Assembly (NCBI GenBank): GCA_964439325.1
Contig: CAYTNW010000002.1
Span: 31,821 to 95,820, forward strand
Reading direction: 5' to 3'
Length of the DNA stretch: 64,000 nt
From: an uncultured Leptospirales bacterium
Lineage (GTDB): Bacteria; Spirochaetota; UBA4802; UBA5550
A model generated the notes under the pieces. The model did no database searches. It was not told the origin of the DNA and saw only the letters and a list, made by a program, of their open reading frames with translations. Each line of letters opens with the position of its first letter. The first letter of the stretch is position 1. The translations under genes and the position numbers were made by a program. Below, piece by piece: positions 16,570-43,921 of the stretch.

Positions 16570-16805
16570 TTTACGCTACTTTATAATGCTCTGACCCTGC
16601 ATTTATCAGTTTTATCAGAAGAAACTGAACAAAAAAACGGTACAGGATAGAATAAAACCTTTATATTCATGATTTTAATAATCCCGGAAGAGCATTTATT
16701 GTCAAATATTATTGACAGCAGAGATAATATTATGTCATATTAGCATGATTCTTTCTGTAAATATGCCGATAATTAAGATATAAAACTAAATGAGCTGGTA
16801 TAAGG

Positions 16806-20437: not shown

Positions 20438-20860
20438 TTATGCACCGCCTGCTATTCTATGCAGATGATAGTAGTTTGAGCTGAAAAGAAAATAAATGAT
20501 AATGAGCATTAAAGATATGAGCAGGAGAACAAAGATAAAAAAACCGGAATACTGGAAAGGCCTCAGAAGAACATATTTGATAATGGATAATACGCTCTCT
20601 CCGTCTCTGTGCCGCGTACGTACTTTCAGATATAATAAAACCGTAAGTATTGAAACCATAAAAAATACAGCGGTATATTTAAAGACAATATTAAAGATGT
20701 CGACATTACGTATTGAATAGTATGTGAGCGGAAAGAATATCAGGTCTGCCAGAACCAGTGCCAGTATCAGGGCTATCAGCGTAAAGAAAGAAATCGAGGA
20801 TAGTTCTTTCATTTTACCCTTCAGAGTGCCGTTTTCAAAACTGTTTTTTCCGTCATTCAT
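20438..20860 (-). CDS. small integral membrane protein (3-4 TM)
   Basis: ATG at 20860 (MNDGKNSFENG...) overlaps the stop of the upstream HEAT gene by 8 nt. The longer tracked ORF (to 20977) lies inside the HEAT gene. Confidence 0.5.
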   Translation of the reverse strand: MNDGKNSFENGTLKGKMKELSSISFFTLIALILALVLADLIFFPLTYYSIRNVDIFNIVFKYTAVFFMVSILTVLLYLKVRTRHRDGESVLSIIKYVLLRPFQYSGFFIFVLLLISLMLIIIYFLFSSNYYHLHRIAGGA

Positions 20861-22453: not shown

Positions 22454-23605
22454 TCAGGGCCGTTCGCCGACCGTAATAAAAAGTGCGACCTTTGTTTTAT
22501 TCCGCCAGACCTCTATTTTCAGCGTTTTCCCTATAGGTGTGTTTTCAACCTCGTTTATCAGATCGCTAAAATTTTTTATCGCATTTCCGTTTACTGACAG
22601 TATTACATCTCCCTGAGTTACACCACCCTTATCAGCAGGCCCCCCATCCGTAACCTGGCCTACCAGTGCGCCGGAATTGTCCTTCATCCCGAGCTCTGCT
22701 GCATATTCCTCTGTCAGAGGGACAATCTGTACTCCTATAAATCCACGTTTTATTTTTTTATGCTTTTTCAGCTGTTCAAGAACGTTCTTCGCGGTGTTTA
22801 TCGGGATTGCGAATCCTATGCCGATATTACCTCCGGTCTGGGAGTATATCATCCTGTTTACCCCTATGACTTCACCAAAGATGTTCAGCAGGGGCCCGCC
22901 GCTGTTTCCGGGATTGATGGATGCGTCGGTCTGTATCTGCGTCTGTGAGCCTCCCATAAGGTCGAGGTCACGTCTGGCGACCGCGCTTATGATTCCAACG
23001 GTAAATGTCCGGTCGAGTCCGAAAGGATTCCCTATAGCTATTGCCCAGTCTCCCACATTCACTGTATCAGAATTTCCGAAATAGACCGGCGTCAGCTTGT
23101 CCCTGGCATTAATCTTTATCAGCGCAAGGTCTGTCCTCTCGTCATAACCTATAACTGTCGCGTCATAACTTGTTTTATCGACCTTTACCTTGACTTTTTC
23201 AACGCCTGCAACGACGTGATAGTTGGTGCAGATATATCCGTCGTCAGAGATAATGAAACCGGTACCGAGACCGGTGCGTTTCTGTGTTTTCGGCTGTTTC
23301 ATCTCCGGACCGAAAAAGTCGCGGAAAAACGGATCGTTTAAAAAGGGATTCTGCTGCATTTTTACTGTCTGTTCCGTACTGATGAACACAACGCTGTTTT
23401 TATTCAGTTCATAGACCTTTTTAAATGCCTCCTGTGCTTTTACCGCATCGGAAACAGAGCTGTCAGCTCTCAGAGGGGATTTGTCCTGTAACCCGAATGA
23501 TGAGTCCTGGCTTTTGCATAGAACACCCGACAGGAATAGCGCAGATGTCAGGGTCAATGTAAAAATAGTAGTAACACTGATGAGAAGTATCCGCTTCTGC
23601 TTCAT
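22454..23605 (-). CDS. htrA: HtrA/DegP-family periplasmic serine protease with one PDZ domain
   Basis: Triad contexts TNYHVV, TDLALIK and GNSGGPL; C-terminal PDZ (GVTQGDVILSVNG). ATG 23605 has AGAGG ~9 nt upstream. The tracked ORF start at 23626 lacks an SD. Confidence 0.9.
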   Translation of the reverse strand: MKQKRILLISVTTIFTLTLTSALFLSGVLCKSQDSSFGLQDKSPLRADSSVSDAVKAQEAFKKVYELNKNSVVFISTEQTVKMQQNPFLNDPFFRDFFGPEMKQPKTQKRTGLGTGFIISDDGYICTNYHVVAGVEKVKVKVDKTSYDATVIGYDERTDLALIKINARDKLTPVYFGNSDTVNVGDWAIAIGNPFGLDRTFTVGIISAVARRDLDLMGGSQTQIQTDASINPGNSGGPLLNIFGEVIGVNRMIYSQTGGNIGIGFAIPINTAKNVLEQLKKHKKIKRGFIGVQIVPLTEEYAAELGMKDNSGALVGQVTDGGPADKGGVTQGDVILSVNGNAIKNFSDLINEVENTPIGKTLKIEVWRNKTKVALFITVGERP

Positions 23606-23639
23606 TTTAAAAACCTCTTTGTTCATATTTTACATTCGT

Positions 23640-23777: not shown

Positions 23778-24107
23778 TCGCGAAGGACATGGAAGTCCGT
23801 GAGCGACACTGTATCGCTAATCAGTTTCCTGTTATGCAGGAAACCGATAAGATATTTTTTTCTGATGCTGTAATGATTTGTTTGTTAAAAAATAATTAAA
23901 ATTTGAGTGGGGATTTTTTATTTTTTTATACTTTTTTTAAACTTAGGATCTTTTTTCCGGGCAGGAGAGGAGCAAAATGGAGAGTTTTACCCTCAAAGAG
24001 AAAATCAGGCTGTATATTACTTTACAAAAATTAAACTCTTCAGTAGGCTGAAAACCGGGTATCGGTTTCATTATGTAACTGTCGATTTGAGGAATATATC
24101 GAATATT

Positions 24108-25085
24108 ATGCTTAAAAAAGAGTGGCTGAAGAAGGCTGAAATTTTCGCGTCGCTGGATAATACCGGTCTGGAACTGATATCCGGTTATTCCGGGTTTGTA
24201 ACACTCGGCCCGGGTACTGAAATATTCAAAGAGGGGAGCAGCGCCGGCGTGCTGTACATAGTTGTTTCCGGCTCGGTACAGATACTGAAATATGACCTGT
24301 ACGAAGGGGTGTCAATTATTGCGGAACTGGTTCCGGGAGATATAATCGGAGAACTGGAATTTTTCATGGAATCCCCTTTCAATGCTCTGGGGGTAACGTC
24401 GGGTGAAACGACACTGCTTAGAATTCCCGGCGAGGGGGACAGCTTCCGCGATGTGCTCGAAAAAAATCCCCGCGTTTCTGCGCTGATCTTTTACGAATTT
24501 TTAAAGGTGATATCAGGCCGGATCAGGAGCGCGAACTCTATGGTTATAGAAAACTCCGCGCTGATGCAGGAGCTGAAGCGCCAGGTATACGGCGACAAGC
24601 TCACCGGTCTTTATAACAAGACATATCTTGAAGAGACTCTTCCCGGTTTTATGACCAGCCGCTCCGAACCGGTGGGGCTTCTGCTGATGAAACCTGATAA
24701 TTTTAAATATATAAACGACAATTTCGGTCATGAAGCCGGTGATGAAACTCTGAAGGTAATGGCTGCGGCGCTGAGCCATTTTGTTGGTGATAAGGGGACC
24801 GTTCTTCGTTATATGGGGAATGAGCTGGGGGTGATACTTCCGCGTTTCGGGCGGAATGAATGTTTCAGGGAGGCCGGGCTTATTCTCAGGATGTTCAACA
24901 TGCTTGATATATCCGAAGCAACCGGATCAGATGACGTCAGATTGTCGATGAGCATCGGGATAGCCGTTTTTCCAGGGGATGCCGATATATCGGACGAGTT
25001 GATATCGCTGGCTCATGAACTCCCTCTGATCGGCAGGGCCAGGGGCGGAAATATGATTCTTTTTCCGGAGGAGATTAAAGCCTGA
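24108..25085 (+). CDS. cNMP-binding domain protein with degenerate GGDEF domain (MGNEL)
   Basis: ATG 24108 (MLKKEWLKKAEIFASLD...). cNMP-binding fold (GDIIGELEFF). GGDEF fold (LTGLYNKTYL...FKYINDNFGHEAGD) whose signature reads RYMGNELG. Confidence 0.8.
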   Translation: MLKKEWLKKAEIFASLDNTGLELISGYSGFVTLGPGTEIFKEGSSAGVLYIVVSGSVQILKYDLYEGVSIIAELVPGDIIGELEFFMESPFNALGVTSGETTLLRIPGEGDSFRDVLEKNPRVSALIFYEFLKVISGRIRSANSMVIENSALMQELKRQVYGDKLTGLYNKTYLEETLPGFMTSRSEPVGLLLMKPDNFKYINDNFGHEAGDETLKVMAAALSHFVGDKGTVLRYMGNELGVILPRFGRNECFREAGLILRMFNMLDISEATGSDDVRLSMSIGIAVFPGDADISDELISLAHELPLIGRARGGNMILFPEEIKA

Positions 25086-26092
25086 TGCGTAACACTACCA
25101 ACGGAAGCATATTGAAGCATATATCGATCTTTTCTGATATAAGCGATGACGATCTGAATAAAATCGCATCTGAAATGAAGAGAAAAGAGGGTAAGGCCGG
25201 AGAGCTACTTTTCAGCGAGGGTGATCCGGGCGATGAACTCTTCGTTGTTGTCAGCGGCGGAGTATCGGTCTTTATCACAGATAAGGAGAACAAGGAGGTG
25301 GTCCTCTCTGAAATTATGACTGGAAATTTTTTCGGAGAGATGTCTATTGTTGAACAGGCTCCGAGGTCGGCCAACTGCCGCGTTATTGAAGACAGCGTTT
25401 TTCTGGTAATGCACGCTGACGACTTTATACGGATTATACACACTATGCCGGAATGCGCCGTAAAGATAATGAACAAGATGCTCGGTATAACCGTAAAGCG
25501 CCTGATGAACGTCGGCGCATTCGTAACGCAGATGGTCCAGTGGGGGGCGGAATCGAGAAAACGCGCGATTACCGATCCCGCGACAGGCCTTTTTAACAGG
25601 CGCTACCTCGAGGAATCCCTTGAGGGGCTTGTCAGCAGGGCCAATACCGGCGGTACGAAGCTGAGTTTTGTTATGTTTGACATGGACAGGTTCGGATCAC
25701 TTAATACAAAATACGGGCAGGAGTTCTGTGACGGGCTGATTGTTACTTCGGCAAGGGCCTTCCGCGATGTTTTTACCGAAGATGATATTCTGGTAAGATA
25801 CGGCGGAGATGAGTTCATTTTTATTTTTCCAAACGCCGGGCATGAGAAGGCGCAGGAGAAATGCGATTCTTTATGCCGGGCAATCCGTGACCTCAGGTTT
25901 CCGGAACATCCGGAACTCAGGCTGTCATGCAGCATGGGATTTGCGACTTATCCTGATGATGCGTCAACTGCCGATGAACTGAAGGAGAGATCGGATAAAG
26001 CGCTTTACCGGGCAAAAGAGAAGGGGAGAGACATGGCGCTAGGTTTTGTGCTGGATGTTACCGGCCACCTCGCCGAGTTTATTGAACTCTGA
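25085..26092 (+). CDS. cNMP-binding domain diguanylate cyclase (intact GGDEF)
   Basis: FFGEMSIVEQAPRSA (cNMP-binding), TGLFNRRYL, VRYGGDEFIFIF, ALYRAKEKGRD. Its ATG overlaps the upstream stop (TGATG). Confidence 0.85.
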   Translation: MRNTTNGSILKHISIFSDISDDDLNKIASEMKRKEGKAGELLFSEGDPGDELFVVVSGGVSVFITDKENKEVVLSEIMTGNFFGEMSIVEQAPRSANCRVIEDSVFLVMHADDFIRIIHTMPECAVKIMNKMLGITVKRLMNVGAFVTQMVQWGAESRKRAITDPATGLFNRRYLEESLEGLVSRANTGGTKLSFVMFDMDRFGSLNTKYGQEFCDGLIVTSARAFRDVFTEDDILVRYGGDEFIFIFPNAGHEKAQEKCDSLCRAIRDLRFPEHPELRLSCSMGFATYPDDASTADELKERSDKALYRAKEKGRDMALGFVLDVTGHLAEFIEL

Positions 26093-27540: not shown

Positions 27541-28026
27541 ATGAAAAAGTATATTGTGGTGTTGTTTGTCTCACTTGCTATGGTTATGTCTGGACTTTCA
27601 TTCAGTGCAATGGCAAAAGACAGTTCCAAAGACAGTAAAAAAACTGTAGCCGATGACAAGAAAGCGGACAAGAAAAAGGATAAGAAAGACAAAAAAGACA
27701 AAAAAGACAAAAAAGATAAAGAAGACGACAAAGACTCAAAAAAAGACAAAAAGGATAAAAAGGACAAAAAAGACAAGGAAGACGATAAAGACTCAAAGAA
27801 AGACAAAAAGGATAAAAAAGATAAAGAAGACGATAAAGCTTCAAAGAAAGAAGACAAGAAAAAAGATGATAAAAAAGAAGCTAAAGCAGCAAAACACACA
27901 AAAACCGCTGATGAGAAAGAACTGAGGGTGGATGAAAAAGGACGCCAGATCTATGAAGGACCAAGAGGGGGACAGTATTATTATACAGATCATGGTACAA
28001 AAGTGTATCTGAAGAAGGACAAATAA
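27541..28026 (+). CDS. secreted K/D-rich tandem-repeat protein with C-terminal GPRGGxYY motif (PBCV-basic-adaptor-like)
   Basis: AAGGAG 8 nt upstream. Signal peptide MKKYIVVLFVSLAMVMSGLSFSAMA. Repeats KKDKKDKKDKKDKEDDKDS. C-terminus GRQIYEGPRGGQYYYTDHGTKVYLKKDK. Confidence 0.7.
   Translation: MKKYIVVLFVSLAMVMSGLSFSAMAKDSSKDSKKTVADDKKADKKKDKKDKKDKKDKKDKEDDKDSKKDKKDKKDKKDKEDDKDSKKDKKDKKDKEDDKASKKEDKKKDDKKEAKAAKHTKTADEKELRVDEKGRQIYEGPRGGQYYYTDHGTKVYLKKDK
27655..27870 (+). repeat. in-frame purine-rich tandem repeat (~60-nt unit built from 9-nt aaagacaaa-type subunits)
   Basis: gacaaaaaagacaaaaaagacaaaaaagataaagaagacgacaaagactcaaaa recurs about three times with small variations. Confidence 0.7.
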
Positions 28027-28341: not shown

Positions 28342-28533
28342 GTGTAAAACCTGCGGGTCTTTATAGCCCATAATAGATATTATTTAAATAGAGATATGAT
28401 TTTTTCTAAAAAAAAGATGAAAAATAAATAAAAAGCCTAAATGGGCTTTTTATTTATTGACATTTATTATTTAAAATATTTAATGGTTATGAATCGATAA
28501 TATAAAAAAGTATGAATAAACAGAGGTATCGAT

Positions 28534-29955
28534 ATGAATTTTAACAGAAGTATTCTTGCAGTAATAATTTTAGTTTCCGGAATTATGATAACCTTTACAG
28601 GGTGCAAGGATGATGACAGTAATAACATTGTCTCATCAGACGGGATAGAGTATCACAATGTGGATGCGTGTCTCATTACCGAAGATGGTAATGTTACAAA
28701 CTGCGATGCGGTAAAAGCATCAGAAAATTTAAAAGCCTCTTCTTCCATAGAACAGAAATCTGCTGCAGCGGAGAAGGCGACTACAGCGACTCTCGGTACA
28801 AATTATCTTTATTACCTTGCAAGAATACTCCCTCCAAAGGTAGATGGTAACTATGTTCAGTCAAACATGGTGCTCCTTTCAACGAACGGAAAGAAGGCAT
28901 TTATCGCTTATAATACAGCAGGTGATACATTCCGCGGGGCTATTCAGATTGTAAACGTTGATGCTTTGAGTCTGCTGCTGGGGATCACGACAGAGTATAA
29001 GTTTTCCGACATGGATATAAACTCCATATATCTCGATGGGGATACGCTTTTCTTCGGCGCGTCGCAGAATCCTGATAATAATTCTGATTTTGCTATGACA
29101 TTTGTCGGGCATATCAGCATCAGCAATCCGGAAAGCCTTGCGACAGTTAAGGCGAATATGGTAAGATTAAATCTGAATGACGATCTGGCTGCGCTCTCAC
29201 CAAGAGGGAGTTATGCTGTGACCAGTATTACCGGGACAAACAGTTCCTATTTTATATCTGTCGGGGCGTATCCGGGTGGTATACTGAAAGTGAGCAAAAC
29301 ACTTGTGAACAACAAGCTTGATATAGCCAATGCTGTATTTACACAATACAGTGATGTAAGGAGCATGACCTCTTTCAATACAAATCTCTATGCTCTGCAG
29401 GGAACTGACCTCGGGGATGGAAATACAGCGGCTGCAAACGGTAATGTCCTTTTAAACAACGGGTCTTCCTGGACTCCTTACTCAATTTCAGATTTTGGCC
29501 CGGCCGGTTACAAGGCGACTATTGATCTTTATAAAGATCCTTCAAAAAATGAAAATGGACTCATATTCCTGGGGTTGTCGGCAAACGGATTAAAGGTTAT
29601 GTCGATGGCGGATTCAGACGGCGCGCTGACTCAAATTGCATCAATATCCAATCCGGCATTAAGCGCGGCGTCTATAGCTGAAGGATACCTTGCGAATACC
29701 AACAGCGCCTCCTATGACAGCGATTTTATTTTCAGTGCAAACGGAAATTACGGTTTCAGGGTTTTTAAAAACAGTAATAACGGCAGTAATAAAATTACTA
29801 ATCCGAATTTTCAGATTGTTGGATATCACAATATGCAGGGCCTTACATACGGCGGAGTCGAGTATTCTGCAAATGATTCGGCATACAGAAACCAGGTACT
29901 TCTTGTGGCTGCCGGAGAAGGGGGAGTCTGCGTATATCTGCTCCTTACTAAATAA
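28534..29955 (+). CDS. lipoprotein, probable beta-propeller (LVIVD-like repeats)
   Basis: MNFNRSILAVIILVSGIMITFTGC lipobox. Recurring strands such as ANGLKVMSM, GNYGFRVFK and AAGEGGVCVYLL. Confidence 0.65.
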   Translation: MNFNRSILAVIILVSGIMITFTGCKDDDSNNIVSSDGIEYHNVDACLITEDGNVTNCDAVKASENLKASSSIEQKSAAAEKATTATLGTNYLYYLARILPPKVDGNYVQSNMVLLSTNGKKAFIAYNTAGDTFRGAIQIVNVDALSLLLGITTEYKFSDMDINSIYLDGDTLFFGASQNPDNNSDFAMTFVGHISISNPESLATVKANMVRLNLNDDLAALSPRGSYAVTSITGTNSSYFISVGAYPGGILKVSKTLVNNKLDIANAVFTQYSDVRSMTSFNTNLYALQGTDLGDGNTAAANGNVLLNNGSSWTPYSISDFGPAGYKATIDLYKDPSKNENGLIFLGLSANGLKVMSMADSDGALTQIASISNPALSAASIAEGYLANTNSASYDSDFIFSANGNYGFRVFKNSNNGSNKITNPNFQIVGYHNMQGLTYGGVEYSANDSAYRNQVLLVAAGEGGVCVYLLLTK

Positions 29956-30020: not shown

Positions 30021-30196
30021 GTATCCTCTTTCACAAATTTAATTCTGCTGCTTTCCGTGACGAATTATATATCAACAAATGATAGTTTATTTCCGAATTT
30101 AGTATTATATTGATATTAAAGCATATTACCGGTTGCCCAAACGGAATTTATCGATTTATACCGGATAAAAGACGATTCAAATTTCTGGGGAGAAAT

Positions 30197-31618
30197 ATGA
30201 AAAATATAGTAAAATTTATAATAGTTATACTTTTCTGTTTAGGTGCAGGTTCCGCTTATTCGAGAACAGCAGTTGAGGCGATGAATGAGGGGAGGATGAA
30301 CCTATACAGCGGCAGAATAGATGAGGGTATCAGACTGCTGGAAGAAGCCTACTCTATGGATAAAAATTCACCCTACATAAAACTGCTGCTGGCAAAAGGC
30401 TACAGCTGGAACAACCAGTGGGATAAGGCGGTATCCCTGTATAAAGAGGTGACAGCTTCATCAAAACCGGAGGAACAGGTATACTGGGAGGGGAAGTTCG
30501 GCATCGCGCAGGTTACTTCATGGCAGAAGAAATATGATGAGGCGCTGGAGCTGTACCGGAGCATTATCGGCTCATATAAGAAGATCCCGAAAAATTTCAG
30601 CATTGATGTGAACCTCGCGATAGGGGACATTTACTCCTGGAAGATGGAAAATGATAATGCACTGGAACAGTTCAACAGTATGCTGGCCCAGTATCCTGAC
30701 AATATTATGATTCTGAACCGGATTGCAAAGATACACCTCTGGGCAGGAGATTACCAGAAGTCCAGGGAGTACACCGATAAAGTTTTAACCCTTGACGGGA
30801 AGGACCATGACTCGGCCGAAAGGAAAAGGGTTCTTGATCAGATAAAAACCTTCTCGGTTACAGCGGGATACGATTATACATATTATACCTCGAAAAATAC
30901 CGAGGGTGACAATATTAATGTACATAACTCGATGCTCGGTCTTAACTGGCAGTATTCAATTCCGCTGAGAGTATTCTCATACGTGACCAATGTTGTTCAG
31001 AACTCCATAGAGACCGATGATCCGGAAAAGGCATCAAAATGGAATTATGATACGAACGTCAGGGGTGGAGGGATATATCGTGTAAATTCACTGACCTTCG
31101 TTTCATTTGCGGCGGATTACACCTACAACGCGAAGATCTTTCCCGATTTCAGCTCCGAGATGACGCTTAGCAGAAAGCTTACTCCGAATATCGACGTTGT
31201 GGGTCTTTACAAGTTTACATACGACAGGCTTGACACAAACCAGACTGTAAAAAGTAAAAAATACAATCTTGTTTCACCGGGACTGATTTTTTACTACAGT
31301 CCGGAGATTTATAACAGGCTGCAGTTCTACGTTGAATCCGATTTCAAGGATGTGTATTATTCTGTATTGATACATCAGCATCTCGGTTTAAATCCGGAAA
31401 ACATATTCCAGTTTTTTGTTTTCCTCAGCCAGGGTAGAACCTACCTGACGTTTTCTGATACCAGTGTTCTGCAGAAGGTAACCACTTACAGCGTTTCGTT
31501 TACATATACGCATTTTTTTACTCCGGACTGGGGAATAGAGTGTGCCACAGGCCTCACAACGAGGGTCAACAGTTACAACAACTTCCATGGCGGATTGAAC
31601 GTAATATACAAATGGTGA
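30197..31618 (+). CDS. outer-membrane protein: N-terminal TPR domain + C-terminal beta-barrel (PgaA/BcsC/NfrA-like architecture)
   Basis: ATG 30197 follows GGGGAG. Signal peptide MKNIVKFIIVILFCLGAGSAYS. TPR-like helices to ~aa 230, then an alternating aromatic/polar pattern ending GGLNVIYKW. Confidence 0.7.
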   Translation: MKNIVKFIIVILFCLGAGSAYSRTAVEAMNEGRMNLYSGRIDEGIRLLEEAYSMDKNSPYIKLLLAKGYSWNNQWDKAVSLYKEVTASSKPEEQVYWEGKFGIAQVTSWQKKYDEALELYRSIIGSYKKIPKNFSIDVNLAIGDIYSWKMENDNALEQFNSMLAQYPDNIMILNRIAKIHLWAGDYQKSREYTDKVLTLDGKDHDSAERKRVLDQIKTFSVTAGYDYTYYTSKNTEGDNINVHNSMLGLNWQYSIPLRVFSYVTNVVQNSIETDDPEKASKWNYDTNVRGGGIYRVNSLTFVSFAADYTYNAKIFPDFSSEMTLSRKLTPNIDVVGLYKFTYDRLDTNQTVKSKKYNLVSPGLIFYYSPEIYNRLQFYVESDFKDVYYSVLIHQHLGLNPENIFQFFVFLSQGRTYLTFSDTSVLQKVTTYSVSFTYTHFFTPDWGIECATGLTTRVNSYNNFHGGLNVIYKW

Positions 31619-31672
31619 CCACTCTTGCCGGTAATAATTTCTGTAAAAATGTAAAGGGACCGGGATACTGCT

Positions 31673-33718
31673 TTGGATGAGAAACCTGTAGAGATTCATG
31701 ATAACATTTTCCGGGTAGGGGCCAATCTGCAGGTCAATGATCTGCATATTAATTCATACCTGATGGTTGATGGAGACGAGGGTATTCTCTTTGGACCCGG
31801 TTCTGCTGTTGATTTTGACAAGACGTACGAAAATATTTTAAAAATAATACCTGTTGAAAAATTACGGTATGTCATTCTGCACAGCCAGGACCCTTCGGTC
31901 TGCGCGTCTTTACCGCTGTTAGAACAGAACGGTTTTTCCGGAAAGATAGTTACACATATGAGAAGCGCGTATTTTATCAAGCATTACGGCATCTCATCTT
32001 TTTTCTTTTATACCAATCTTAACGCCAACAGGCTTGTCCTGGGATCGGGACGTGTAATAAGTTTTCTTAACACCCCGTATCTTAAATCAGCCGGATCATT
32101 CATTTCGTATGACAGCCGGTCGGGAATACTTTTTTCCGGGGACCTGTTCGGGGCATTTCAGAAGCGTTGGAGCCTTTATGCTGACGATACCTACCTTGAA
32201 GAGATGATAAAGTATCATGAGGAGTATGTTCCCGAGAGCGAATTTTTACGGTATTATCTCGAAATCCTGGTTAAAAAAGAGATCTCGATCATTGCTCCTC
32301 AATACGGATCGGTGATTACTAAAGATATAAGGAAATGCATCACAGCTCTGATGGATGTGAAAAGCGGGGCGTTTTTCAATAATACAAAGATCGCTCTCCC
32401 TCTTACCGGCGGGACGGCTGGTATCTGCAACGGTTTTCTTAAAGTGTATTACTCGGCTTTTACCAGAGATGAGGTGATGGAGGTTTTCAAGGGGAGCGGT
32501 ATCCGGCTCGATGAAAAAACAGGCCTTATTACAGGATTTGACTTTGGTGTTGATGATCTGTGGAACCGTTTTTTTGAGATAATAGTCATCCGCAAAGGAC
32601 TTGAGTGGATCAACATAATAGAGGTTGAACTGCACAGAGCTGTCCTTGAAAATAAAATGAAATATCCTGATATTATATATAGATCATCGCTGCATGAGAT
32701 GGAGGAGAAATATAAAAAACTTGAGAACGAGAGGACCTCGCTCGTAGAGACCCTGCATGCTATTGAAAAAGAGTACCAGATAAAGGAGAACCAGCTGTTC
32801 AAGGATCCTCTCGCCCAGGTGTACAAGGAGGATATGTTTATTGAAAATCTTACCTCTGACATCGCGGTATGGAGAGATCTGGGGATAGAATTCGCTTTTT
32901 TCATTATTGAAATAGACAACCTTATTCAGCTTAATAACAGGTACGGAAGAGAGGTGGGAGATGAGCTGCTTGCTAACAGCTCATATTTACTTAAAAATTT
33001 TAAAAAGGCGAACAAATCCTATGCGCATCATCTTATCTTCAGAATGAACGGGCCGAGGTTTACCTATTACTGCAATGACGTTACAAAGGACGAGATCGCT
33101 TCAATTGCCGAAGATGTGAGGAAGGAGTTCCGGGATTCAAAAATTTTTATAACAGGAATCACGGTTTCTATCGGAGTAATCCATTCCTCCGACCTGACAG
33201 AAACAAATACCTGTGATGATTCTGAAATTGCCGGGAATATTGTTAAAATCGCGAACTCCAGGCTGAGGCTTGCAAAGCATAAGGGGAGTGACTCGGTCTG
33301 CAGCGATTCAGCACCGCAATCCGGACCCGAGAGTGAGGATTATGTAATGGTTATAGATCCCGACATAAGTCTGAGGTATATGCTTGAAACTCATCTCTCA
33401 AGCGCAGGTTTTAAGGTGTTTACCTGCGCGATGGGTGATGAAGCCCTTGAGAAAATTGATATAATGAAACCGGCTGTGATCATCAGCGGAATGATGCTCC
33501 CGAAGATGGACGGATTTACCCTGAGAGCAAAACTTCTAGAGGAGTCCGCGCTTAAAGATATACCCTTCATAATGACATCGTCTATAAAGGATGATAAATC
33601 TATAATAAGGGCCCAGTCTCTCGGAATATACCACTATTTTAAAAAACCTTATTCTATTGTCGAGCTGATAGGGCTGGTTAAACATATAAAAAGCAGAATT
33701 GAAGATCATGCTCAGTAA
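31673..33718 (+). CDS. multidomain signalling protein: FprA/ODP-type MBL-like domain + coiled coil + degenerate GGDEF (NGPRF) + receiver-like domain lacking the acceptor Asp
   Basis: VEIHDNIFRVG...NSYLMVDGDEGILFGPG...LRYVILHSQDPS; IEIDNLIQLNNRYGREVGDELL...FRMNGPRFTYY; VMVIDPDISLRYML...AVIISGMMLPKMDGF...YHYFKKP. TTG start; the exact start is uncertain. Confidence 0.75.
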   Translation: MDEKPVEIHDNIFRVGANLQVNDLHINSYLMVDGDEGILFGPGSAVDFDKTYENILKIIPVEKLRYVILHSQDPSVCASLPLLEQNGFSGKIVTHMRSAYFIKHYGISSFFFYTNLNANRLVLGSGRVISFLNTPYLKSAGSFISYDSRSGILFSGDLFGAFQKRWSLYADDTYLEEMIKYHEEYVPESEFLRYYLEILVKKEISIIAPQYGSVITKDIRKCITALMDVKSGAFFNNTKIALPLTGGTAGICNGFLKVYYSAFTRDEVMEVFKGSGIRLDEKTGLITGFDFGVDDLWNRFFEIIVIRKGLEWINIIEVELHRAVLENKMKYPDIIYRSSLHEMEEKYKKLENERTSLVETLHAIEKEYQIKENQLFKDPLAQVYKEDMFIENLTSDIAVWRDLGIEFAFFIIEIDNLIQLNNRYGREVGDELLANSSYLLKNFKKANKSYAHHLIFRMNGPRFTYYCNDVTKDEIASIAEDVRKEFRDSKIFITGITVSIGVIHSSDLTETNTCDDSEIAGNIVKIANSRLRLAKHKGSDSVCSDSAPQSGPESEDYVMVIDPDISLRYMLETHLSSAGFKVFTCAMGDEALEKIDIMKPAVIISGMMLPKMDGFTLRAKLLEESALKDIPFIMTSSIKDDKSIIRAQSLGIYHYFKKPYSIVELIGLVKHIKSRIEDHAQ

Positions 33719-36554
33719 TATTACATTAATAATAATCGTATGTGTATTGCTTCTTGCGGATATTTTATGCGCGATACTTCTTTTTTATTCAAAAGGCAGG
33801 AGGCGCAGACGGGCTGAAAAGTATTCAAGACTGGAAAAACGCGTGATAGACGCACTGGCCGGTTTTGGTGACGATATCGACCTCCCCGGTTTAAAAATCG
33901 ATCCGGGGATGCTCTTTTCAATTTTTAAAAGCATTACGGTTTCCATAGAATTATCAGAGACGGTAAAGCGGAAATTTATAGATTTTTTTAACGAAACAGG
34001 CATTGTAAAAAAATACTGCCTTCGTATTAAATCGCTCAGCAGGATCAAACGCTCGGAGGCAGCACTGAACCTTGCCTTTCTGCCATGCAACAGAAGCCGC
34101 AGAACCCTTGAATCGGCGATGGAGAATGAGAAGCATTATCATATCAAAGTCTTCATCGTTAATTCACTTATCGAGATTGATGATTCTGACGCCATTCCGT
34201 ATATACTCCAGACCCTGATAGGGTCACCTCAGTGGTATAAGGAAAAAATATGCAGCATAATGTGGCAGTTCAGTGACAAGCTGCATAGTTTCCTTATAAA
34301 TCTGAGCTCCATTGACCTGAAAGATCTGAAGATGGTAATAGTTTCCTTTGCCAAATACTATTTTTCACCCGATCTGAAGGCTCTGCTGCTGGAATTTATT
34401 AAATCCGATGACCCGGATATCGCGAATCCTGCATCAGACGCGTGTCTTAAATTCTATCCTGAGCAGCTGCGTTCCGGGAAATATATCAAGTCCGCGAAGC
34501 CGTATATAAAACGGAATGCGGTTGCCGCCACAGGGCTTCTTGCAACAGCAGAGTCTATCGAGACGCTTGCAGGCGCAATGCGCGACGGTGAAATCTTTGA
34601 TATGTGTGTTTCGGCCATATCGGGAATCATAATCAGTAACAGCCAGCTTTTACAGGTAGTTGAGTCGCGGTTTACTACGGAAACCGACCCTGTTATTAAA
34701 AAGGGGCTGGCGGAGGTGCTTTCCAACCGGATTGAATATATTCTTACGAAGCTCAGATTTGACAATTCCGAAAAGCTGAAAAAACTGATTGTTGATATAA
34801 TTTCTCAGGGCAACTTAAGCAGCACAATCGCTTTTCTGAATGAAAACAGCGACCAGAAACTTGAAGGGAGAATCTGTGAAGCTGTTGAACCTCTTCTCCA
34901 AACGAGGGATGACATTGTCCGTGAATTCAGGCTGTATCTCAACGAACGTGTTCTTGAAAAGATGAAGCTTGCGAAGCTTGAACCACAGAAGGGCGATCCG
35001 AGAGCGGAGGTCGTGCGTATAGATCTGCTGAGAGTGTTTCTCGGGATAGCGGTACTGTCTTTTCCGGCTGCATTTATAATAAACTACTGGGGGACTTTTG
35101 TCCACGCCGGATTTTACGGAACACTGAAAAATCTGTTTTACCTGTTTAACTATTTTTTCGCTTTTTACGGGATTACGCTGAACTCAATATATCTGCTGCT
35201 GCTGGTCTTCTCTTTTATCGGTTCAAGAATGGAACTGCGGTGCTGGAACATGAAGGACACAAGGTTTCTGTTTAAGCAGGGGATCCTCCCGTCGATATCG
35301 ATTATTGCTCCGGCGTACGGAGAAGAGGCGACGATTATCGAGAGCGTCAGCTCCCTGCTGAACCTCAGTTATCCCGACTATGAGGTAATAGTCGTCAATG
35401 ACGGTTCAACCGACAATACGCTGCGGACCCTGATAGATAACTTTAATTTAAAACGGGTGGACATGGATGTCGCTGAAAAACTTAAAACAGGTTCACTGCG
35501 CGGTCTTTACAGGAACAGATATATACCAAACCTTACAGTGGTGGACAAGGTAAACGGAGGTAAGGCCGATTCTCTGAATGCGGGGATAAATATCGCAACA
35601 AAAGAGTATTTCTGCGGAATTGACGCGGATTCACTGCTGGAGAGGGATTCGCTGCTTAAAATGGCATCGCCATTTCTCGATTCGGACAGGGAGGTGATAG
35701 CTACCGGGGGAAACATCGTGCCGGTCAACGGCTGTACGGTGGATAAGGGCTACCTTACCAGGATACAGATACCGGGAAATTTTCTTTCAAGGCTGCAGAC
35801 AATGGAGTACATAAGATCGTTCATATCGGGCAGGATAGGCTGGGCCACTATACGGTGTCTGCTTATAATTTCCGGGGCATTCGGGCTGTTCAGAAAATCC
35901 TCGGTGATTGCGAGCGGCGGATACATGACAGGTAAAGAGAAATTCGGCAAAGACACTGTCGGGGAGGATATGGAGCTTGTCGTCCGGCTGATAAAGGATT
36001 CAAAAAGGAGGGGTGAGAACGGAAATGTGAATTATGTATTCAATGCAAACTGCTGGACAGAGGTCCCGGAGAGCTACACTATTCTACGGAAGCAGCGTGA
36101 CCGCTGGCAGAGGGGACTGCTTGATATAATGACGTTTCATATCGGTATGCTGTTCAATCCGCTATACAGAGAAGTGGGGCTGATTGCGTTTCCGTATTTC
36201 ATAATTTTTGAAGTGATAGGTCCGTGGATCGAGGCACAGGGACTTTTTATGTTCATTACTGCACTTGCGATGGGACTGCTGACTACACATATTGTATTGC
36301 TGTTTTTCATCGGTACTATTTTTATGGGGATAGCTGTATCGATAACCTCTTTTTATATTATGGAGAGGGGAAACAACTATTTTTCCAACAAGGATATATC
36401 GGTCCTGATTTTATATGCGTTTATCGAAAATTTCGGAATAAGGCAGTATTTCAGCCTGCTCAGACTCGGCGGATATATAAATGCGCTGAGAAATGTACAG
36501 GGGTGGGGTAAAATGGTCCGCAAAGGATTTCAGAACAAGCCTGGTACTGCATAG
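33708..36554 (+). CDS. membrane-embedded processive family-2 glycosyltransferase fused to an N-terminal HEAT-like repeat domain
   Basis: ATG 33708 (11-nt overlap with the upstream gene). N-terminal TM, ~400 aa of helical repeats, TM pair, GT2 core IIAPAYGEE...VVNDGSTDNT...GIDADS...GEDMELV...QRDRWQRG, then C-terminal TM helices. Confidence 0.8.
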   Translation: MLSNITLIIIVCVLLLADILCAILLFYSKGRRRRRAEKYSRLEKRVIDALAGFGDDIDLPGLKIDPGMLFSIFKSITVSIELSETVKRKFIDFFNETGIVKKYCLRIKSLSRIKRSEAALNLAFLPCNRSRRTLESAMENEKHYHIKVFIVNSLIEIDDSDAIPYILQTLIGSPQWYKEKICSIMWQFSDKLHSFLINLSSIDLKDLKMVIVSFAKYYFSPDLKALLLEFIKSDDPDIANPASDACLKFYPEQLRSGKYIKSAKPYIKRNAVAATGLLATAESIETLAGAMRDGEIFDMCVSAISGIIISNSQLLQVVESRFTTETDPVIKKGLAEVLSNRIEYILTKLRFDNSEKLKKLIVDIISQGNLSSTIAFLNENSDQKLEGRICEAVEPLLQTRDDIVREFRLYLNERVLEKMKLAKLEPQKGDPRAEVVRIDLLRVFLGIAVLSFPAAFIINYWGTFVHAGFYGTLKNLFYLFNYFFAFYGITLNSIYLLLLVFSFIGSRMELRCWNMKDTRFLFKQGILPSISIIAPAYGEEATIIESVSSLLNLSYPDYEVIVVNDGSTDNTLRTLIDNFNLKRVDMDVAEKLKTGSLRGLYRNRYIPNLTVVDKVNGGKADSLNAGINIATKEYFCGIDADSLLERDSLLKMASPFLDSDREVIATGGNIVPVNGCTVDKGYLTRIQIPGNFLSRLQTMEYIRSFISGRIGWATIRCLLIISGAFGLFRKSSVIASGGYMTGKEKFGKDTVGEDMELVVRLIKDSKRRGENGNVNYVFNANCWTEVPESYTILRKQRDRWQRGLLDIMTFHIGMLFNPLYREVGLIAFPYFIIFEVIGPWIEAQGLFMFITALAMGLLTTHIVLLFFIGTIFMGIAVSITSFYIMERGNNYFSNKDISVLILYAFIENFGIRQYFSLLRLGGYINALRNVQGWGKMVRKGFQNKPGTA

Positions 36555-36837: not shown

Positions 36838-37359
36838 TCAGATAAGGTCATCTTCCAGAAGATTTTTCACAAGTTCGCTTTTAATATCGTCAAGAACATC
36901 ATCCGGGATATCGTCCGGGCGGTCATATTCCGCACAAAGATCCATAAGTATTTCAAGGGAGTTGATCAGCAGACTGTAGTAGTACCAGTCTCTCATCAGC
37001 TCTGCTGCGAACAGGACCTGCCGGTCAGTTAGTTCGTTCCATGCGACGCAGAGAAAATGTTTGCAGGTGCCGGTGAAGAAAGATTCGAATCCGCATCCCG
37101 TATGGTCGTCATTATATGTGAGACAGCAGACAATCCCCGGCTCATCATCAGTTATTCCGACGTTTCCGCACTGCATCCCCTCTTTTACGAGTTTAGGTTC
37201 ACTGGATTGCTCCGGATGTTTCAGTTTGCGGCGTGAATTTGATTCATTCCCCCTGCCGATAAATATATCCTCTATCTGTTCCGGAGAAACTGTATAGTTA
37301 TGGCTTCCGCAGCAGAATGAACAGGAGGCGCCGTACCCGGGACGGCAGCGGTTTATCAT
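36838..37359 (-). CDS. cysteine-rich hypothetical protein with acidic C-terminus
   Basis: 173 aa. CRPGYGASCSFCCGSH...GIVCCLTYNDDHTGCGFESFFTGTCKHFLC, then a D/E-rich tail. Only loosely reminiscent of CxxCxxCC (YkgJ-type) proteins. Confidence 0.5.
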   Translation of the reverse strand: MINRCRPGYGASCSFCCGSHNYTVSPEQIEDIFIGRGNESNSRRKLKHPEQSSEPKLVKEGMQCGNVGITDDEPGIVCCLTYNDDHTGCGFESFFTGTCKHFLCVAWNELTDRQVLFAAELMRDWYYYSLLINSLEILMDLCAEYDRPDDIPDDVLDDIKSELVKNLLEDDLI

Positions 37360-37818: not shown

Positions 37819-39885
37819 ATGAAATTAAAAACAGTAATACAGGTGGTGTTATTAGCCGCGGCGGTTGCCATAACAGCATGCGGAGGCGACAGCAAGAAAA
37901 AGGTAAGTAGCCAGCCCTTTATAACAGTATGGGATACAACATTGACCGGAACAGGAACAACGTTATCCAACCAGCTAAAGCTGCCCCTTGATGCTTCCGG
38001 AACATATGATTTTTACGTTAAATGGGGGGATGGAAAAACAGATCATATAACTTCATTCGCCCAGACCGAGATCACTCATACATATACAACCGGAGGGATA
38101 TACAATGTATCGATAGACGGGACAATAGAGGGATTCGGGTTTATATCTGCAAGCTCCGGGGACAATATTAAACTGACAGATGTCAAAAACTGGAATAATG
38201 TCAAACTGCATAACAACGGGCATCAGTTTGCCGGAGCGGCCAACTTAACCGGATTCAGCGCCGCAGATGAATTAGACCTGAGCAATATCACCAACATGAG
38301 CGGTATGTTTGAGAATGCGGAACTGTTCAATCAGGATATAAGTTCGTGGGATGTCAGTAACGTAACCGATATGAACGGAATGTTTGAAAATGCATTTGCG
38401 TTCAATCAGGATATCGGGGCATGGAATGTAGGGAATGTTACAGATATGAATTCGATGTTTGCATATGCATCTTCATTTAATCAGGATATCAGCGGATGGA
38501 TAGTGAATAAGGTTACAGATATGAGTTCGATGTTCGACAATGCGTTATCGTTTAATCAGCAGATCGGATCGTGGGATGTGGGCAATGTTGCAAATATGCG
38601 CAGTATGTTTAAAGGGGCTTCGTCTTTCAACGGGGATATAAGCGGATGGAATGTCGCCAAAGTAACTGATATGAGCTCAATGTTTGAAGATGCACAGGCT
38701 TTCAACCAGAACATATCATCATGGAATGTAAGCAGTGTAACAAATATGAATACAATGTTTTACGGAGCATCTGTGTTTAACCAGGATATCAATTATAACA
38801 GTGTTACAGGATCATGGAATGTAAGCAAGGTTACGGATATGAGTTATATGTTCGCCAATGCCATTGCTTTCAACGGGAATATATCCTTATGGAATGTAGG
38901 CAGCGTAACTGATATGAGTTACATGTTCGGTATGGCATCTGCATTCGATCAGGATATCAGTTCATGGAATGTCGCTAATGTAACAAACATGAACGGTATG
39001 TTTGCTTATACATCGGCGTTTAGCAGGGATCTAAGCTCATGGGATGTCTCTAATGTGACAAATATGAGCAGCATGTTTGAAAATGCATCATTCAATCAGA
39101 AACTCGAGTGGGGAAACAGGGTAAGCAAAGTTAAGGATATGAATTCGATGTTTAAAAACGCATCTGCATTCAACCAGGACATAGGTTTATGGAATGTAAG
39201 TGGTGTTACGAATATGAACAGTATGTTTAACGGCGCTTCAGCATTCAATCAGAATATAGGATCATGGAATGTGAGCAGTGTAACGGATATGAACAGTATG
39301 TTCTACAGTGCGACTGTATTCAATCAGGATCTGCATTCATGGGATGTAAGCAAGGTTAAAGATATGAGTTCAATGTTTACCCTGGCAGAGGCATTCAACG
39401 GCAATATAGGATCATGGGTCGTAAGCAGTGTGACAACAATGAGTTATATGTTTTCCTATGCATCGTCATTCAACCAGGCACTCAACTGGGGCAATAGTGT
39501 CAGCAGTGTAACTGATATGAGATTTATGTTTTCTAACGCGACTGATTTCGACGGAGACATCAGTTCCTGGAATGTAAGCAGTGTAACAATGATGAACAGC
39601 ATGTTTCTTGGAGCTGCAGCGTTTAACCAGAATATCGGATTGTGGGATGTGAGCAATGTCGGTGATATGGGGTGTATGTTTAAAGGCGCTTCTGCATTCA
39701 ATCAGGATATAAGTTCATGGAACGTAAGCAAGGTCACGGAGATGAGCAGTATGTTTGAAAACGCAGCTGCGTTTGTGCAGGATCTGCTGTCCTGGGGAGA
39801 TCATATCAGCAGCAGTACTACCTATATGAGTAATATGTTTACCGGCAGCGGAGTTACCACGACGCCGACCTGGTATCCTTATTGA
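37819..39885 (+). CDS. BspA-type / DUF285 repeat surface lipoprotein
   Basis: MKLKTVIQVVLLAAAVAITACGG lipobox, then more than 20 tandem ~25-aa units of the form F-x-x-A-x-x-FNQDIxSWNVSxVTxMxxMF. Confidence 0.85.
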   Translation: MKLKTVIQVVLLAAAVAITACGGDSKKKVSSQPFITVWDTTLTGTGTTLSNQLKLPLDASGTYDFYVKWGDGKTDHITSFAQTEITHTYTTGGIYNVSIDGTIEGFGFISASSGDNIKLTDVKNWNNVKLHNNGHQFAGAANLTGFSAADELDLSNITNMSGMFENAELFNQDISSWDVSNVTDMNGMFENAFAFNQDIGAWNVGNVTDMNSMFAYASSFNQDISGWIVNKVTDMSSMFDNALSFNQQIGSWDVGNVANMRSMFKGASSFNGDISGWNVAKVTDMSSMFEDAQAFNQNISSWNVSSVTNMNTMFYGASVFNQDINYNSVTGSWNVSKVTDMSYMFANAIAFNGNISLWNVGSVTDMSYMFGMASAFDQDISSWNVANVTNMNGMFAYTSAFSRDLSSWDVSNVTNMSSMFENASFNQKLEWGNRVSKVKDMNSMFKNASAFNQDIGLWNVSGVTNMNSMFNGASAFNQNIGSWNVSSVTDMNSMFYSATVFNQDLHSWDVSKVKDMSSMFTLAEAFNGNIGSWVVSSVTTMSYMFSYASSFNQALNWGNSVSSVTDMRFMFSNATDFDGDISSWNVSSVTMMNSMFLGAAAFNQNIGLWDVSNVGDMGCMFKGASAFNQDISSWNVSKVTEMSSMFENAAAFVQDLLSWGDHISSSTTYMSNMFTGSGVTTTPTWYPY
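38221..39800 (+). repeat. coding tandem array of ~75-78-nt DUF285 units
   Basis: Recurrent ...ttcaatcaggatat(a/c)(a/g)g(t/c)tcatggaatgtaagcag(t/c)gt(a/t)ac(a/g)gatatga... along the gene. Confidence 0.8.
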
Positions 39886-42962: not shown

Positions 42963-43801
42963 GCTTTTGTCCCATTCCGCTTTGCAATTGAATTATTCTC
43001 ATTTTTTATTAAGCAGCCTGTCTATTTTCTTCAAACACTTATTTACCAAAGCTTTCAATATTTATTAATAGTGAGTCTATGTGATCATGACCGTTTAGTT
43101 TTCGGAAGTTTTTTTCACTTTCAAAAATTCCAGTACATGCCCATCGAATAGCCATATTGGAATTATACAATTCCTTTACCCTTCTGGTAATATTTCGTAT
43201 ACCGCCATTCAGGCTCACAATTGGATTAGTGGTGCTGAGCCTTCTCATACTCCAAGTGCCGTTTTATTGCCTTTTTTTATCTATGCCAAGAACTACAGGT
43301 ACTGTCGTTTTTGCATAGACTATCCCGTCTATCATAATAAAGTGATACGATTCTTTAATCGTTCTGAATTCAAGTTTCAAGTTGTTCTTGAGTCTTTATA
43401 ATAATTATAGCAGGTTGTTGATTCTGTTTCCTTCTCTTTACTGTCCTTAATATTTCTAATACTTGAATGACTTACAGGGATTTTCTGGCCACCAAGTATT
43501 ACCGATGTTTCTTTTGAACTCCACGGATAAATTTCCTGTTATCAATATGTTTATATCTTTCTCTGCATATTGTTGTTATTTTACTCTCAATAATTTCATG
43601 ATATCTATTCATAGCGAAATAACTTTTTCAATAAGGGATTTATGGACCTCATCATTAATCTCTTTTTCTGATAATGCTGTAATTCCTTCTTGCTTTTTTT
43701 TTCCCTCTTTTTTAACTTTCATAGCGGCATCTCCCGGTGCATTATGAAATAATGCACCGGGAGATGCCGCTCAATTGACAACACCATTTGGGGCAAAATC
43801 T
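42963..43801 (-). mobile_element. decayed IS256-family insertion sequence (internal deletion, frameshifts)
   Basis: Imperfect terminal inverted repeats: gcttttgtcccattccgctttgcaattgaat at the left, and on the right (reverse complement) agattttgccccaaatggtgttgtcaattgag. Transposase-like pieces lie on the minus strand. Confidence 0.65.
43039..43722 (-). pseudogene. IS256-family (Mutator-type) transposase pseudogene
   Basis: Fragments in different frames: MKVKKEGKKKQEGITALSEKEINDEVHKSL..., ...YHEIIESKIT..RERYKHIDNRKFIR..., ...ILGGQKIPV..., ...IMIDGIVYAKTTVPVVLGIDKK..., and the tracked ORF 43039-43248 (STTNPIVSLNGGIRNITRRVK...FRKLNGH). Confidence 0.6.
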
Positions 43802-43921
43802 AAGGAAACTCGAGAAATTTTTGATGGTAGTTTGCGACGGTTACGCCGTCATGTTGGTTTCCTGGAAAGACAACAATCCCGGCCCAGGTGCATAACTTAT
43901 GGAAGAGACAACGGAGGCATT

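Follow-up and report, generated by a model that had tools for sequence, protein, structure and literature searches.

In the 64,000-nucleotide stretch of DNA analysed here (the window; contig CAYTNW010000002.1 of assembly GCA_964439325.1, from an uncultured Leptospirales bacterium), the gene at 31673..33718 encodes a protein of 681 amino acids (aa), hereafter the regulator, in which a metallo-beta-lactamase-fold domain of the ODP family, a GGDEF domain and a receiver (REC) domain follow one another. All three lack residues needed for their chemistry, as had been proposed in an earlier sequence-only reading of this DNA and as is borne out by HMMER alignments to solved structures. With moderate confidence, we take the regulator to have no enzymatic activity and to serve, in a regulatory or accessory role, as a subunit of an exopolysaccharide system of the synthase-dependent type. 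This system would consist of a TPR/beta-barrel porin, the regulator itself and a processive synthase in which HEAT repeats precede a family 2 glycosyltransferase (HEAT-GT2). Our confidence is much higher for two parts of this reading, the pseudo-enzyme and its partner, and lower for two others, the contact with the HEAT domain and the gain of a new input. Dead signalling domains acting as synthase regulators are of a known kind, and the copy in the window belongs to a wider, apparently uncharacterised family, of which it is the form with a decayed sensor. The features on which this reading rests are the following.

31673..33718 (+): regulator gene, encoding a degenerate ODP domain, a middle domain, a coiled coil, a degenerate GGDEF domain and a degenerate receiver; 681 aa, TTG start, stop TAA at 33716-33718
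31673..32368 (+): ODP-type metallo-beta-lactamase-fold domain with a degenerate diiron site, aa 1-232 (Pfam E 5e-46; phmmer 6qrq E 1.5e-25; Foldseek target TM 0.80-0.83)
31877..31897 (+): L69-H-S-Q-D-P-S75 replacing the family's L-H-H-Q-D-P-D; His changed to S71, Asp to S75, D73 kept
32405..32800 (+): middle domain (aa ~245-335) and 38-residue helix (aa 339-376) running into the GGDEF domain, as in coiled-coil diguanylate cyclases (AlphaFold2 secondary structure; Foldseek)
32801..33307 (+): degenerate GGDEF domain, aa 377-545 (Pfam E 2e-12; structure-based alignments)
33020..33061 (+): Y450-A-H-H-L-I-F-R-M-N-G-P-R-F463, with YAHH at the position of the RxxD I-site and NGPRF at that of GGDEF
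33341..33715 (+): pseudo-receiver, aa 557-681 (Pfam E 7e-15; RR468 alignment; family columns)
33699..36554 (+): HEAT-GT2 membrane synthase, 951 aa from TTG 33699 or 948 aa from ATG 33708

Three degenerate domains in one intact gene

Pfam places ODP (PF19583) at aa 25-212 with 157 bits against a cutoff of 27, GGDEF at aa 377-539 and Response_reg at aa 558-669. An AlphaFold2 model built from 49 homologues (mean predicted local distance difference test, pLDDT, of 87) lays the protein out as a metallo-beta-lactamase-type domain (aa 1-232), a small alpha/beta middle domain, a long helix, a GGDEF fold and a CheY-like C-terminus. Its top Foldseek matches in the PDB are the ODP crystals of Thermotoga maritima and Treponema denticola (6qwo, 6qrq and 6r9n), followed by flavodiiron proteins and by the coiled-coil-GGDEF cyclases DgcB (6ttr), WspR (fusion, 3i5c) and PadC (5llx). 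Residue positions were assigned independently for each of the three domains by HMMER alignment to solved structures, namely the ODPs 6qrq and 6qnm together with FprA 2ohh, DosC 4zve and others for GGDEF, and RR468 3dge for the receiver. In these alignments every substitution that had been read by eye falls at a canonical position; an error of register is thereby ruled out, the sole slip concerning H70, which is not the ligand histidine. Judged by its sequence, the regulator belongs to the ODP, GGDEF and REC superfamilies and lacks the catalytic or ligand features by which each of them is defined.

The GGDEF fold itself is supported by the Pfam match, by TIGR00254 (53 bits against a cutoff of 37) and by the Foldseek matches to DgcB, WspR and PadC. 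At the GG[D/E]EF position stands N459-G-P-R-F463, in which both metal-binding acidic residues are gone, and the I-site position, where RxxD is expected five residues upstream, reads Y450-A-H-H453. The LTGLxNR segment reads AQVYKE, K385-E386 taking the place of NR, GH has become G425-R426 and the first aspartate of DxD is E413; N421 and D430, which align to the guanine-contacting Asn and Asp, are kept. The NGPRF, KE and GR substitutions and the missing I-site, all pointed out before, were thus confirmed against DosC 4zve and the other references. An active cyclase with an unusual motif was considered and ruled out, both motif acidic residues being lost and the motif being degenerate throughout the family. 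So was an I-site elsewhere in the protein, no conserved RxxD being found anywhere in the regulator.

The C-terminal domain keeps a CheY-like fold with the Thr/Ser and Lys positions occupied by S636 and K658, which align to T83 and K105 of RR468, and lacks both the acceptor aspartate and the Mg-binding acidic pair. The acceptor position is G606 (33488-33490), in agreement with the receiver having been called degenerate. The 'DPD' that had been taken for a retained acidic pair is not one, because the second, Mg-binding aspartate is lost: D562-P563 stands where phosphorylatable receivers have DD.

As for the N-terminal domain, the ODPs of T. maritima and T. denticola read (T/S)-H-Q-D-P-D, L-H-S, S-G-D and P-Q-H-G, and the counterparts in the regulator are H70-S71-Q-D73-P-S75, L-K138-S, S-G-D157 and P-Q-Y211-G. 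K138 (32084-32086) stands for the ligand His of 'LHS/LHF' and Y211 (32303-32305) for that of 'PQHG'. Set against the ODP diiron ligand pattern H-x-D-x-D...H...D...H, the six positions are therefore S71, D73, S75, K138, D157 and Y211, four of the six ligands being lost; alignment to FprA 2ohh puts the same positions on the FprA ligands H-x-E-x-D-H, H, D and H. The FprA/ODP-type layout and the decay of its metal motif (S71, S75) had both been recognised correctly, but the exact register had not. The histidine then read as a ligand is H70, one residue before the ligand position (relatives read L-H-H-Q-D-P-D), and the H-x-E-x-D-H given as the family motif is the FprA form, ODP proper carrying H-x-D-x-D. 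Elsewhere, ODP domains are fused to PP2C phosphatases or to Ser/Thr kinases; this occurrence beside other outputs marks the ODP domain as a modular sensor.

The open reading frame is intact over its 681 codons. An in-frame TAA lies upstream at 31652-31654, which leaves TTG 31673 as the sole canonical start before the conserved N-terminal strands; no other canonical start exists in this frame 5' of Met31, and AAGGGA is found 13 nt 5' of the TTG. The public gene call (P0001) begins at Met31 (31763) and, with its 651 aa, cuts off these strands; it is too short, because N27, Y29 and L30, which precede Met31, are invariant across the family. Contigs from three independent wastewater-metagenome runs contain every sampled word of the stretch, which is accordingly no assembly artefact, and a pseudogene is likewise ruled out by the intact and conserved frame.

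A conserved pairing with a HEAT-GT2 synthase

The overlap with a downstream GT2 gene that had been noticed from the sequence is real and amounts to 11 nt if the synthase starts at ATG 33708, or to 20 nt if it starts at TTG 33699. The tie between the two genes extends far beyond the window, since a HEAT-GT2 gene is the next gene on the same strand in 73 of the 73 homologous loci, from several phyla, that have downstream DNA (more than about 110 nt; eight other contigs end at the regulator gene). Spacing has a median of -4 nt, an overlap of 4 nt being the usual arrangement, and 63 of these 73 pairs overlap or lie at most 20 nt apart. For this locus scan a 12-sequence subset served as the profile, because the 49-sequence alignment was too diverse. 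Viewed from the HEAT side, the regulator lies upstream in each of the five metagenome loci with upstream DNA, the five informative loci of this reverse test. In Clostridium grantii DSM 8605 (L015 10001-19896) two complete regulator and HEAT-GT2 pairs stand in tandem, and the pair was therefore duplicated as a unit.

The synthase begins with a transmembrane helix and a basic stretch, continues with a HEAT solenoid (about aa 34-455, nt 33798-35063), a transmembrane hairpin and the GT2 domain (about aa 531-860), and ends with C-terminal transmembrane helices; the positive-inside rule would place both the HEAT and the GT2 domain in the cytoplasm. Its DGS, DAD, GEDMEL and QRxRW motifs are invariant, and the D, DxD, ED and QxxRW motifs of the GT2 domain, together with a TPR/beta-barrel porin, are those of synthase-dependent exopolysaccharide systems. 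AlphaFold2 predicts the solenoid of about 400 residues confidently and the GT2 domain poorly (pLDDT below 50 over residues 616-803), and in a PDB sequence search the synthase had only generic GT2 matches of short length. With the HEAT region as sole query, phmmer retrieved, from 1.84 billion representatives, no more than 145 proteins, of which the full-length ones are mostly 940-1000 aa long and match over about residues 30-450. Nearly all matches being N-terminal in proteins of about 950 aa, the HEAT domain is essentially specific to this synthase. Four homologues (P0125, P0130, P0200 and P0210) reach 1350-1620 aa and likewise carry the HEAT domain at the N-terminus; at the C-terminus they seem to be extended or fused, possibly with the gene that follows the synthase in Firmicute loci.

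It had also been suggested that the regulator might transmit c-di-GMP (cyclic di-GMP) to the HEAT domain. The sequences lend this part no support at either end of the proposed relay: the regulator has no conserved RxxD, and the Pfam matches of the synthase include neither PilZ nor any other c-di-GMP-binding domain.

A widespread family and a clade that lost its sensor

A search of 5.8 billion proteins yielded 66 that share the architecture of the regulator or its GGDEF-REC part, and a scan of one genome per species yielded 326 relatives, the best 80 of which were fetched; residue columns were read in about 140 sequences. The 326 relatives come from phyla that include Bacillota, Spirochaetota, Fibrobacterota and Chloroflexota. 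Hosts comprise Leptospirales and other Spirochaetota, Clostridia, Acetobacterium, Desulfitobacterium, Syntrophomonadaceae, Negativicutes, Fibrobacterota, Chitinispirillaceae, Anaerolineae (Flexilinea), Margulisbacteria and Trichococcus; among those in culture are Acetobacterium, Clostridium, Fusibacter, Flexilinea and Trichococcus. The family is widespread in anaerobes and apparently undescribed.

Not one of the roughly 140 sequences has GG[DE]EF. The receiver acceptor is Glu in most, Asp in four (Fusibacter, Acidaminobacteraceae) and Gly or Ala in a few, and the second, Mg-binding acidic position is T, S, N or P in nearly all. To judge from these columns, the dead GGDEF domain and the pseudo-receiver are traits of the whole family. 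The ODP ligands H-D-D-H-D-H, on the other hand, are complete in every sequence read except two scattered ones and a clade that includes the window protein and proteins from Leptospirales metagenome-assembled genomes, which we call the NGPRF clade after its motif. It is monophyletic in a simple and rough neighbour-joining tree of the GGDEF-REC part, and its sister lineages have intact ligands. Since the relatives combine dead GGDEF and receiver domains with intact diiron ligands, the window represents a lineage in which the sensor input was lost secondarily. The earlier view of the protein as a pseudo-enzyme stands, but the protein was not simply a scaffold from the start.

Within the NGPRF clade no member retains more than three ligands, some lack the ODP domain altogether, and the six ligand positions vary (SDSKDY, DDSKDH, NDSKDY, GESKDF and NDSFNH). 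The forms devoid of an ODP domain (P0012-P0020, P0026, L003 and L085) are about 435 aa long and consist of the middle domain, the coiled coil and the GGDEF and receiver domains; they occur at three or more places within the clade in the same tree. In L003 and L085 a porin gene ends 40-100 nt before the short regulator gene, and the domain must therefore be truly absent. L085 has this short regulator directly adjoining both the porin gene and a full-length HEAT-GT2 gene, so the HEAT domain is kept independently of the ODP domain.

Mean pairwise identity within the clade is 60% for the ODP domain, 77% for GGDEF and 78% for the receiver (about 59% overall), against 69%, 44% and 54%, respectively, in the other clade; 143 positions are invariant in the NGPRF clade. 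Of the 32 residues that are invariant there and rare elsewhere, 21 fall in the GGDEF domain. Among these clade-specific residues are N459, P461 and R462 of NGPRF and a four-residue insertion carrying A451-H452 of YAHH, and both YAHH and NGPRF are invariant or nearly so. The acceptor position varies inside the clade between G, E and A. From the domain identities and the clade-specific invariant residues, the dead GGDEF and receiver domains appear to be under strong purifying selection, the GGDEF domain having been remodelled and then frozen, and the ODP domain of the clade appears relaxed and dispensable.

These figures bear on three other explanations. That the regulator is a functionless relic, its frame maintained only for translational coupling to the synthase gene, could account for three dead active sites and for a stop codon that overlaps the synthase start. 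We regard it as very improbable, however, because every relative has a long intact frame, the GGDEF and receiver domains are better conserved than the protein as a whole, the pair was duplicated as a unit and deletions have hit the ODP domain only, never the GGDEF-REC part.

The decayed ODP domain might still sense something, through a reduced or different metal site (for instance one ion on H70, D73 and D157) or through a small-molecule ligand in the former metal pocket. D73 and D157 are indeed kept in nearly all clade members, the fold is predicted with confidence and an average identity of 60% implies constraint where the domain is present. The replacement residues at the ligand positions are nonetheless unconserved across the clade, H70 is Gln in most members, and K138, which replaces the ligand His in all but one of the ODP-containing members, may do no more than occupy the site. 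In at least ten sequence clusters, moreover, the domain is gone by deletion while the rest of the protein and a full synthase remain, and residual sensing seems to us decidedly unlikely.

More deserving of attention, although still unlikely in our estimate, is a nucleotide receptor, in which the degenerate GGDEF domain would bind a guanine nucleotide, be it GTP or, at a non-canonical site, c-di-GMP or another cyclic dinucleotide, and would inform the synthase of the nucleotide status of the cell. Caulobacter PdeA, whose GEDEF domain binds GTP, and the I-site receptors PelD, BcsE and PssE offer precedents. The NGPRF clade keeps N421 and D430, its GGDEF domain is the site of most clade-specific invariant residues, with YAHH at the I-site position, and a cyclic-nucleotide (cNMP)-binding protein with an intact GGDEF motif is encoded 5.6 kb upstream. 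Against this stand the missing RxxD, the loss of both metal-binding acidic residues of the motif, the change of the first DxD aspartate to Glu and the replacement by Ser of the Arg in the KxxGR phosphate-binding segment. The Asn, moreover, is missing from most relatives outside the clade, and nucleotide binding can therefore not be the general mechanism of the family.

A proposed mechanism and its weak points

If the regulator is a non-enzymatic subunit, it probably controls the synthase by direct contact. The T. denticola ODP reportedly senses O2 and Fe(II) (work attributed to Muok et al., 2019), and it is tempting to hypothesize that the ancestral protein was a dimeric sensor of this kind. 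It would have worked as a dimeric sensor-transducer, the coiled-coil-GGDEF geometry matching that of dimeric cyclases in Foldseek, with a conformational signal passing through the long helix to the GGDEF-REC output module. This module would dock on the synthase from the cytoplasmic side, the HEAT solenoid being the most plausible site, and would gate or stabilise the enzyme; neither c-di-GMP synthesis nor phosphotransfer would be involved. The lineage of the window would then have abandoned the redox or iron input, and its protein may now be a constitutive subunit, or else a receptor for a different input that enters through the remodelled GGDEF pocket, which carries YAHH...NGPRF and retains N421 and D430, or through the receiver domain.

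Several points weigh against the subunit reading or parts of it. The physical contact with the synthase and the domain contacted are deduced only, and conserved adjacency fits a role in assembly or folding as well as one in regulation. That the intact relatives sense O2 or iron is an extrapolation from two single-domain ODPs that have been characterised, and in the window protein a single metal ion could still be bound by H70, D73 and D157. How many times the ODP domain was deleted independently is uncertain, given the rough tree. Finally, the best NCBIfam match of the synthase, PgaC/IcaA, reaches 111 bits against a cutoff of 422.

A bolder version of the proposal holds that the ODP-GGDEF-REC protein and its HEAT-GT2 partner form an anaerobe-wide post-translational switch, in which a diiron O2/Fe(II) sensor toggles the synthase independently of c-di-GMP and phosphorylation, and that the clade of the window dropped the redox input and rewired its GGDEF pocket to a new ligand or partner. 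We put this forward as a tentative idea, more doubtful than probable.

Genomic surroundings of the pair

Upstream of the regulator, the following features complete or delimit the cluster.

30110..31618 (+): TPR protein with a YaiO-type outer-membrane beta-barrel (Pfam; TIGR04390 33.3 bits against a cutoff of 32)
28534..29955 (+): 473-aa lipoprotein outside any assigned family; its gene may open the cluster
28423..28458 (no strand): long two-way hairpin, rich in A+T and terminator-like, immediately upstream of the cluster

The TPR/YaiO gene is conserved upstream of the regulator in Leptospirales-like loci, and its product is, by its sequence features, likely the export porin of the cluster; with this porin upstream, the genes have the layout of a synthase-dependent exopolysaccharide system. 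The lipoprotein has no Pfam family and no PDB match and is unlike the 455-aa protein encoded downstream of the synthase in a Leptospirales genome. Two Fibrobacterota loci have weak homologues of it downstream of the GT2 gene, and whether it belongs to the cluster is uncertain. The hairpin is the probable upstream boundary, and downstream the cluster is bounded by an opposite-strand gene after 36554. In the window as a whole, promoter-like and terminator-like sites were not more numerous than expected from shuffled sequence, and this hairpin is the only such site used here; Rfam and tRNA scans of the window found no RNA genes.

The synthase gene is followed directly by 36838-37359 (-), which runs on the opposite strand and encodes a Cys-rich protein of 173 aa with no family. 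Before the cluster, 27541-28026 (+) encodes a small membrane protein whose basic tail is of the PBCV type. Further upstream lie two tandem genes for proteins with cNMP-binding and GGDEF domains, 23907-25085 (+) and 25085-26092 (+), of which the first has the degenerate motif RYMGNELGV and the second the intact RYGGDEFIF, with no RxxD; on account of its intact motif the second is the candidate diguanylate cyclase about 5.6 kb upstream of the cluster. A separate HEAT-repeat protein of 434 aa (HEAT_2, E 2e-31) is encoded at 20853-22157 (-), beside an HtrA-type protease gene (22454-23626). On the other side, 37819-39885 (+) encodes a 688-aa lipoprotein almost wholly made of DUF285 (BspA-like) repeats (Pfam E 1e-192). 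The bin 44001-46000 has 57% G+C against a background of about 42% and may be foreign DNA; the overlapping open reading frame 43775-46339 (+) encodes a lipoprotein-like product (signal peptide, Cys around residues 50-68) with no Pfam match. In a Leptospirales genome (L002), the second gene after the synthase (16312-18102) has sub-threshold matches to polysaccharide deacetylase and GH42-M, which hints at a polymer-modifying enzyme; the cluster of the window has no such gene.

Comparison with known systems

The closest analogue of the regulator is BcsE of E. coli-type cellulose secretion, which combines a degenerate NTPase-like N-terminal domain with degenerate REC and GGDEF domains (PMC7439463). 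Both are cytosolic proteins of three domains with dead receiver and GGDEF domains, are encoded in the operon of a GT2 synthase and act, or in the case of the regulator would act, through protein contacts. They differ in that BcsE binds c-di-GMP through a conserved RxxD I-site, which the regulator lacks, in the domain order (REC-GGDEF in BcsE, GGDEF-REC in the regulator) and in the N-terminal domain (RecA-like in BcsE, an ODP metallo-beta-lactamase fold in the regulator). BcsE has BcsQ, BcsF and the PilZ domain of BcsA as partners, whereas that of the regulator is HEAT-GT2 and its neighbours are not bcs genes; in Pfam the regulator has no match to the BcsE/GIL family.

PelD, Listeria PssE and Bacillus subtilis YdaK are degenerate-GGDEF c-di-GMP receptors of exopolysaccharide systems (PMC4125290, PMC7112168, PMC8461298). 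Like them, the regulator is a degenerate GGDEF protein encoded beside, and dedicated to, a polysaccharide glycosyltransferase; unlike them, it is soluble rather than membrane-anchored, has no RxxD I-site and carries an ODP domain and a pseudo-receiver. Staphylococcus aureus GdpS, whose GGDEF domain serves as a protein-recruiting module (PMC11962490), provides the precedent of a non-cyclase GGDEF domain whose whole function is to bind, at the membrane, a partner enzyme. Its partner is DgkB, however, it is membrane-anchored and has neither ODP nor REC domain, and the NCBIfam GdpS model gives the regulator 39 bits against a cutoff of 400. The REC-GGDEF cyclases PleD, WspR and DgcR share the two folds and a coiled-coil helix leading into GGDEF, and PleD is the best whole-protein NCBIfam match of the regulator, with 86 bits far below the cutoff of 474; in the regulator, however, the order is reversed and GG[DE]EF, acceptor aspartate and I-site are all missing.

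The ODPs of T. denticola and T. maritima (6qnm, 6r9n, 6qrq, 6qwo) have the fold and family of the N-terminal domain, and most relatives of the regulator share their ligand pattern. They are single domains that signal to a chemoreceptor and CheA, whereas the ODP domain of the regulator is fused to GGDEF-REC and has lost most of its ligands. PMC7666581 summarises the T. denticola protein as a sensor of O2 and Fe(II). With the poly-N-acetylglucosamine systems PgaABCD and IcaADBC, the cluster shares a processive GT2 with QxxRW and a TPR/beta-barrel outer-membrane porin; it differs from them by an N-terminal HEAT domain of about 420 residues and a YaiO-type barrel, and in the window it includes neither PgaD nor a PgaB-type deacetylase.

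The literature that we searched yielded no description of an ODP-GGDEF-REC protein or of its HEAT-GT2 partner, nor any dedicated switch linking oxygen or iron to matrix production in strict anaerobes. To our knowledge, all characterised synthase partners with dead GGDEF or receiver domains (BcsE, PelD, PssE) still read c-di-GMP through an I-site. The present family has no I-site; most of its members possess instead an apparently intact diiron domain of the oxygen/iron-sensing type, and across hundreds of anaerobic species the family is tied strictly to one HEAT-GT2 synthase. If the proposed mechanism is true, exposure to oxygen or iron would be linked directly to matrix production in strict anaerobes, a plausible protective response. 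The clade of the window, with its natural series of intact, ligand-less and deleted sensors, offers material for dissecting which domains contact the synthase.

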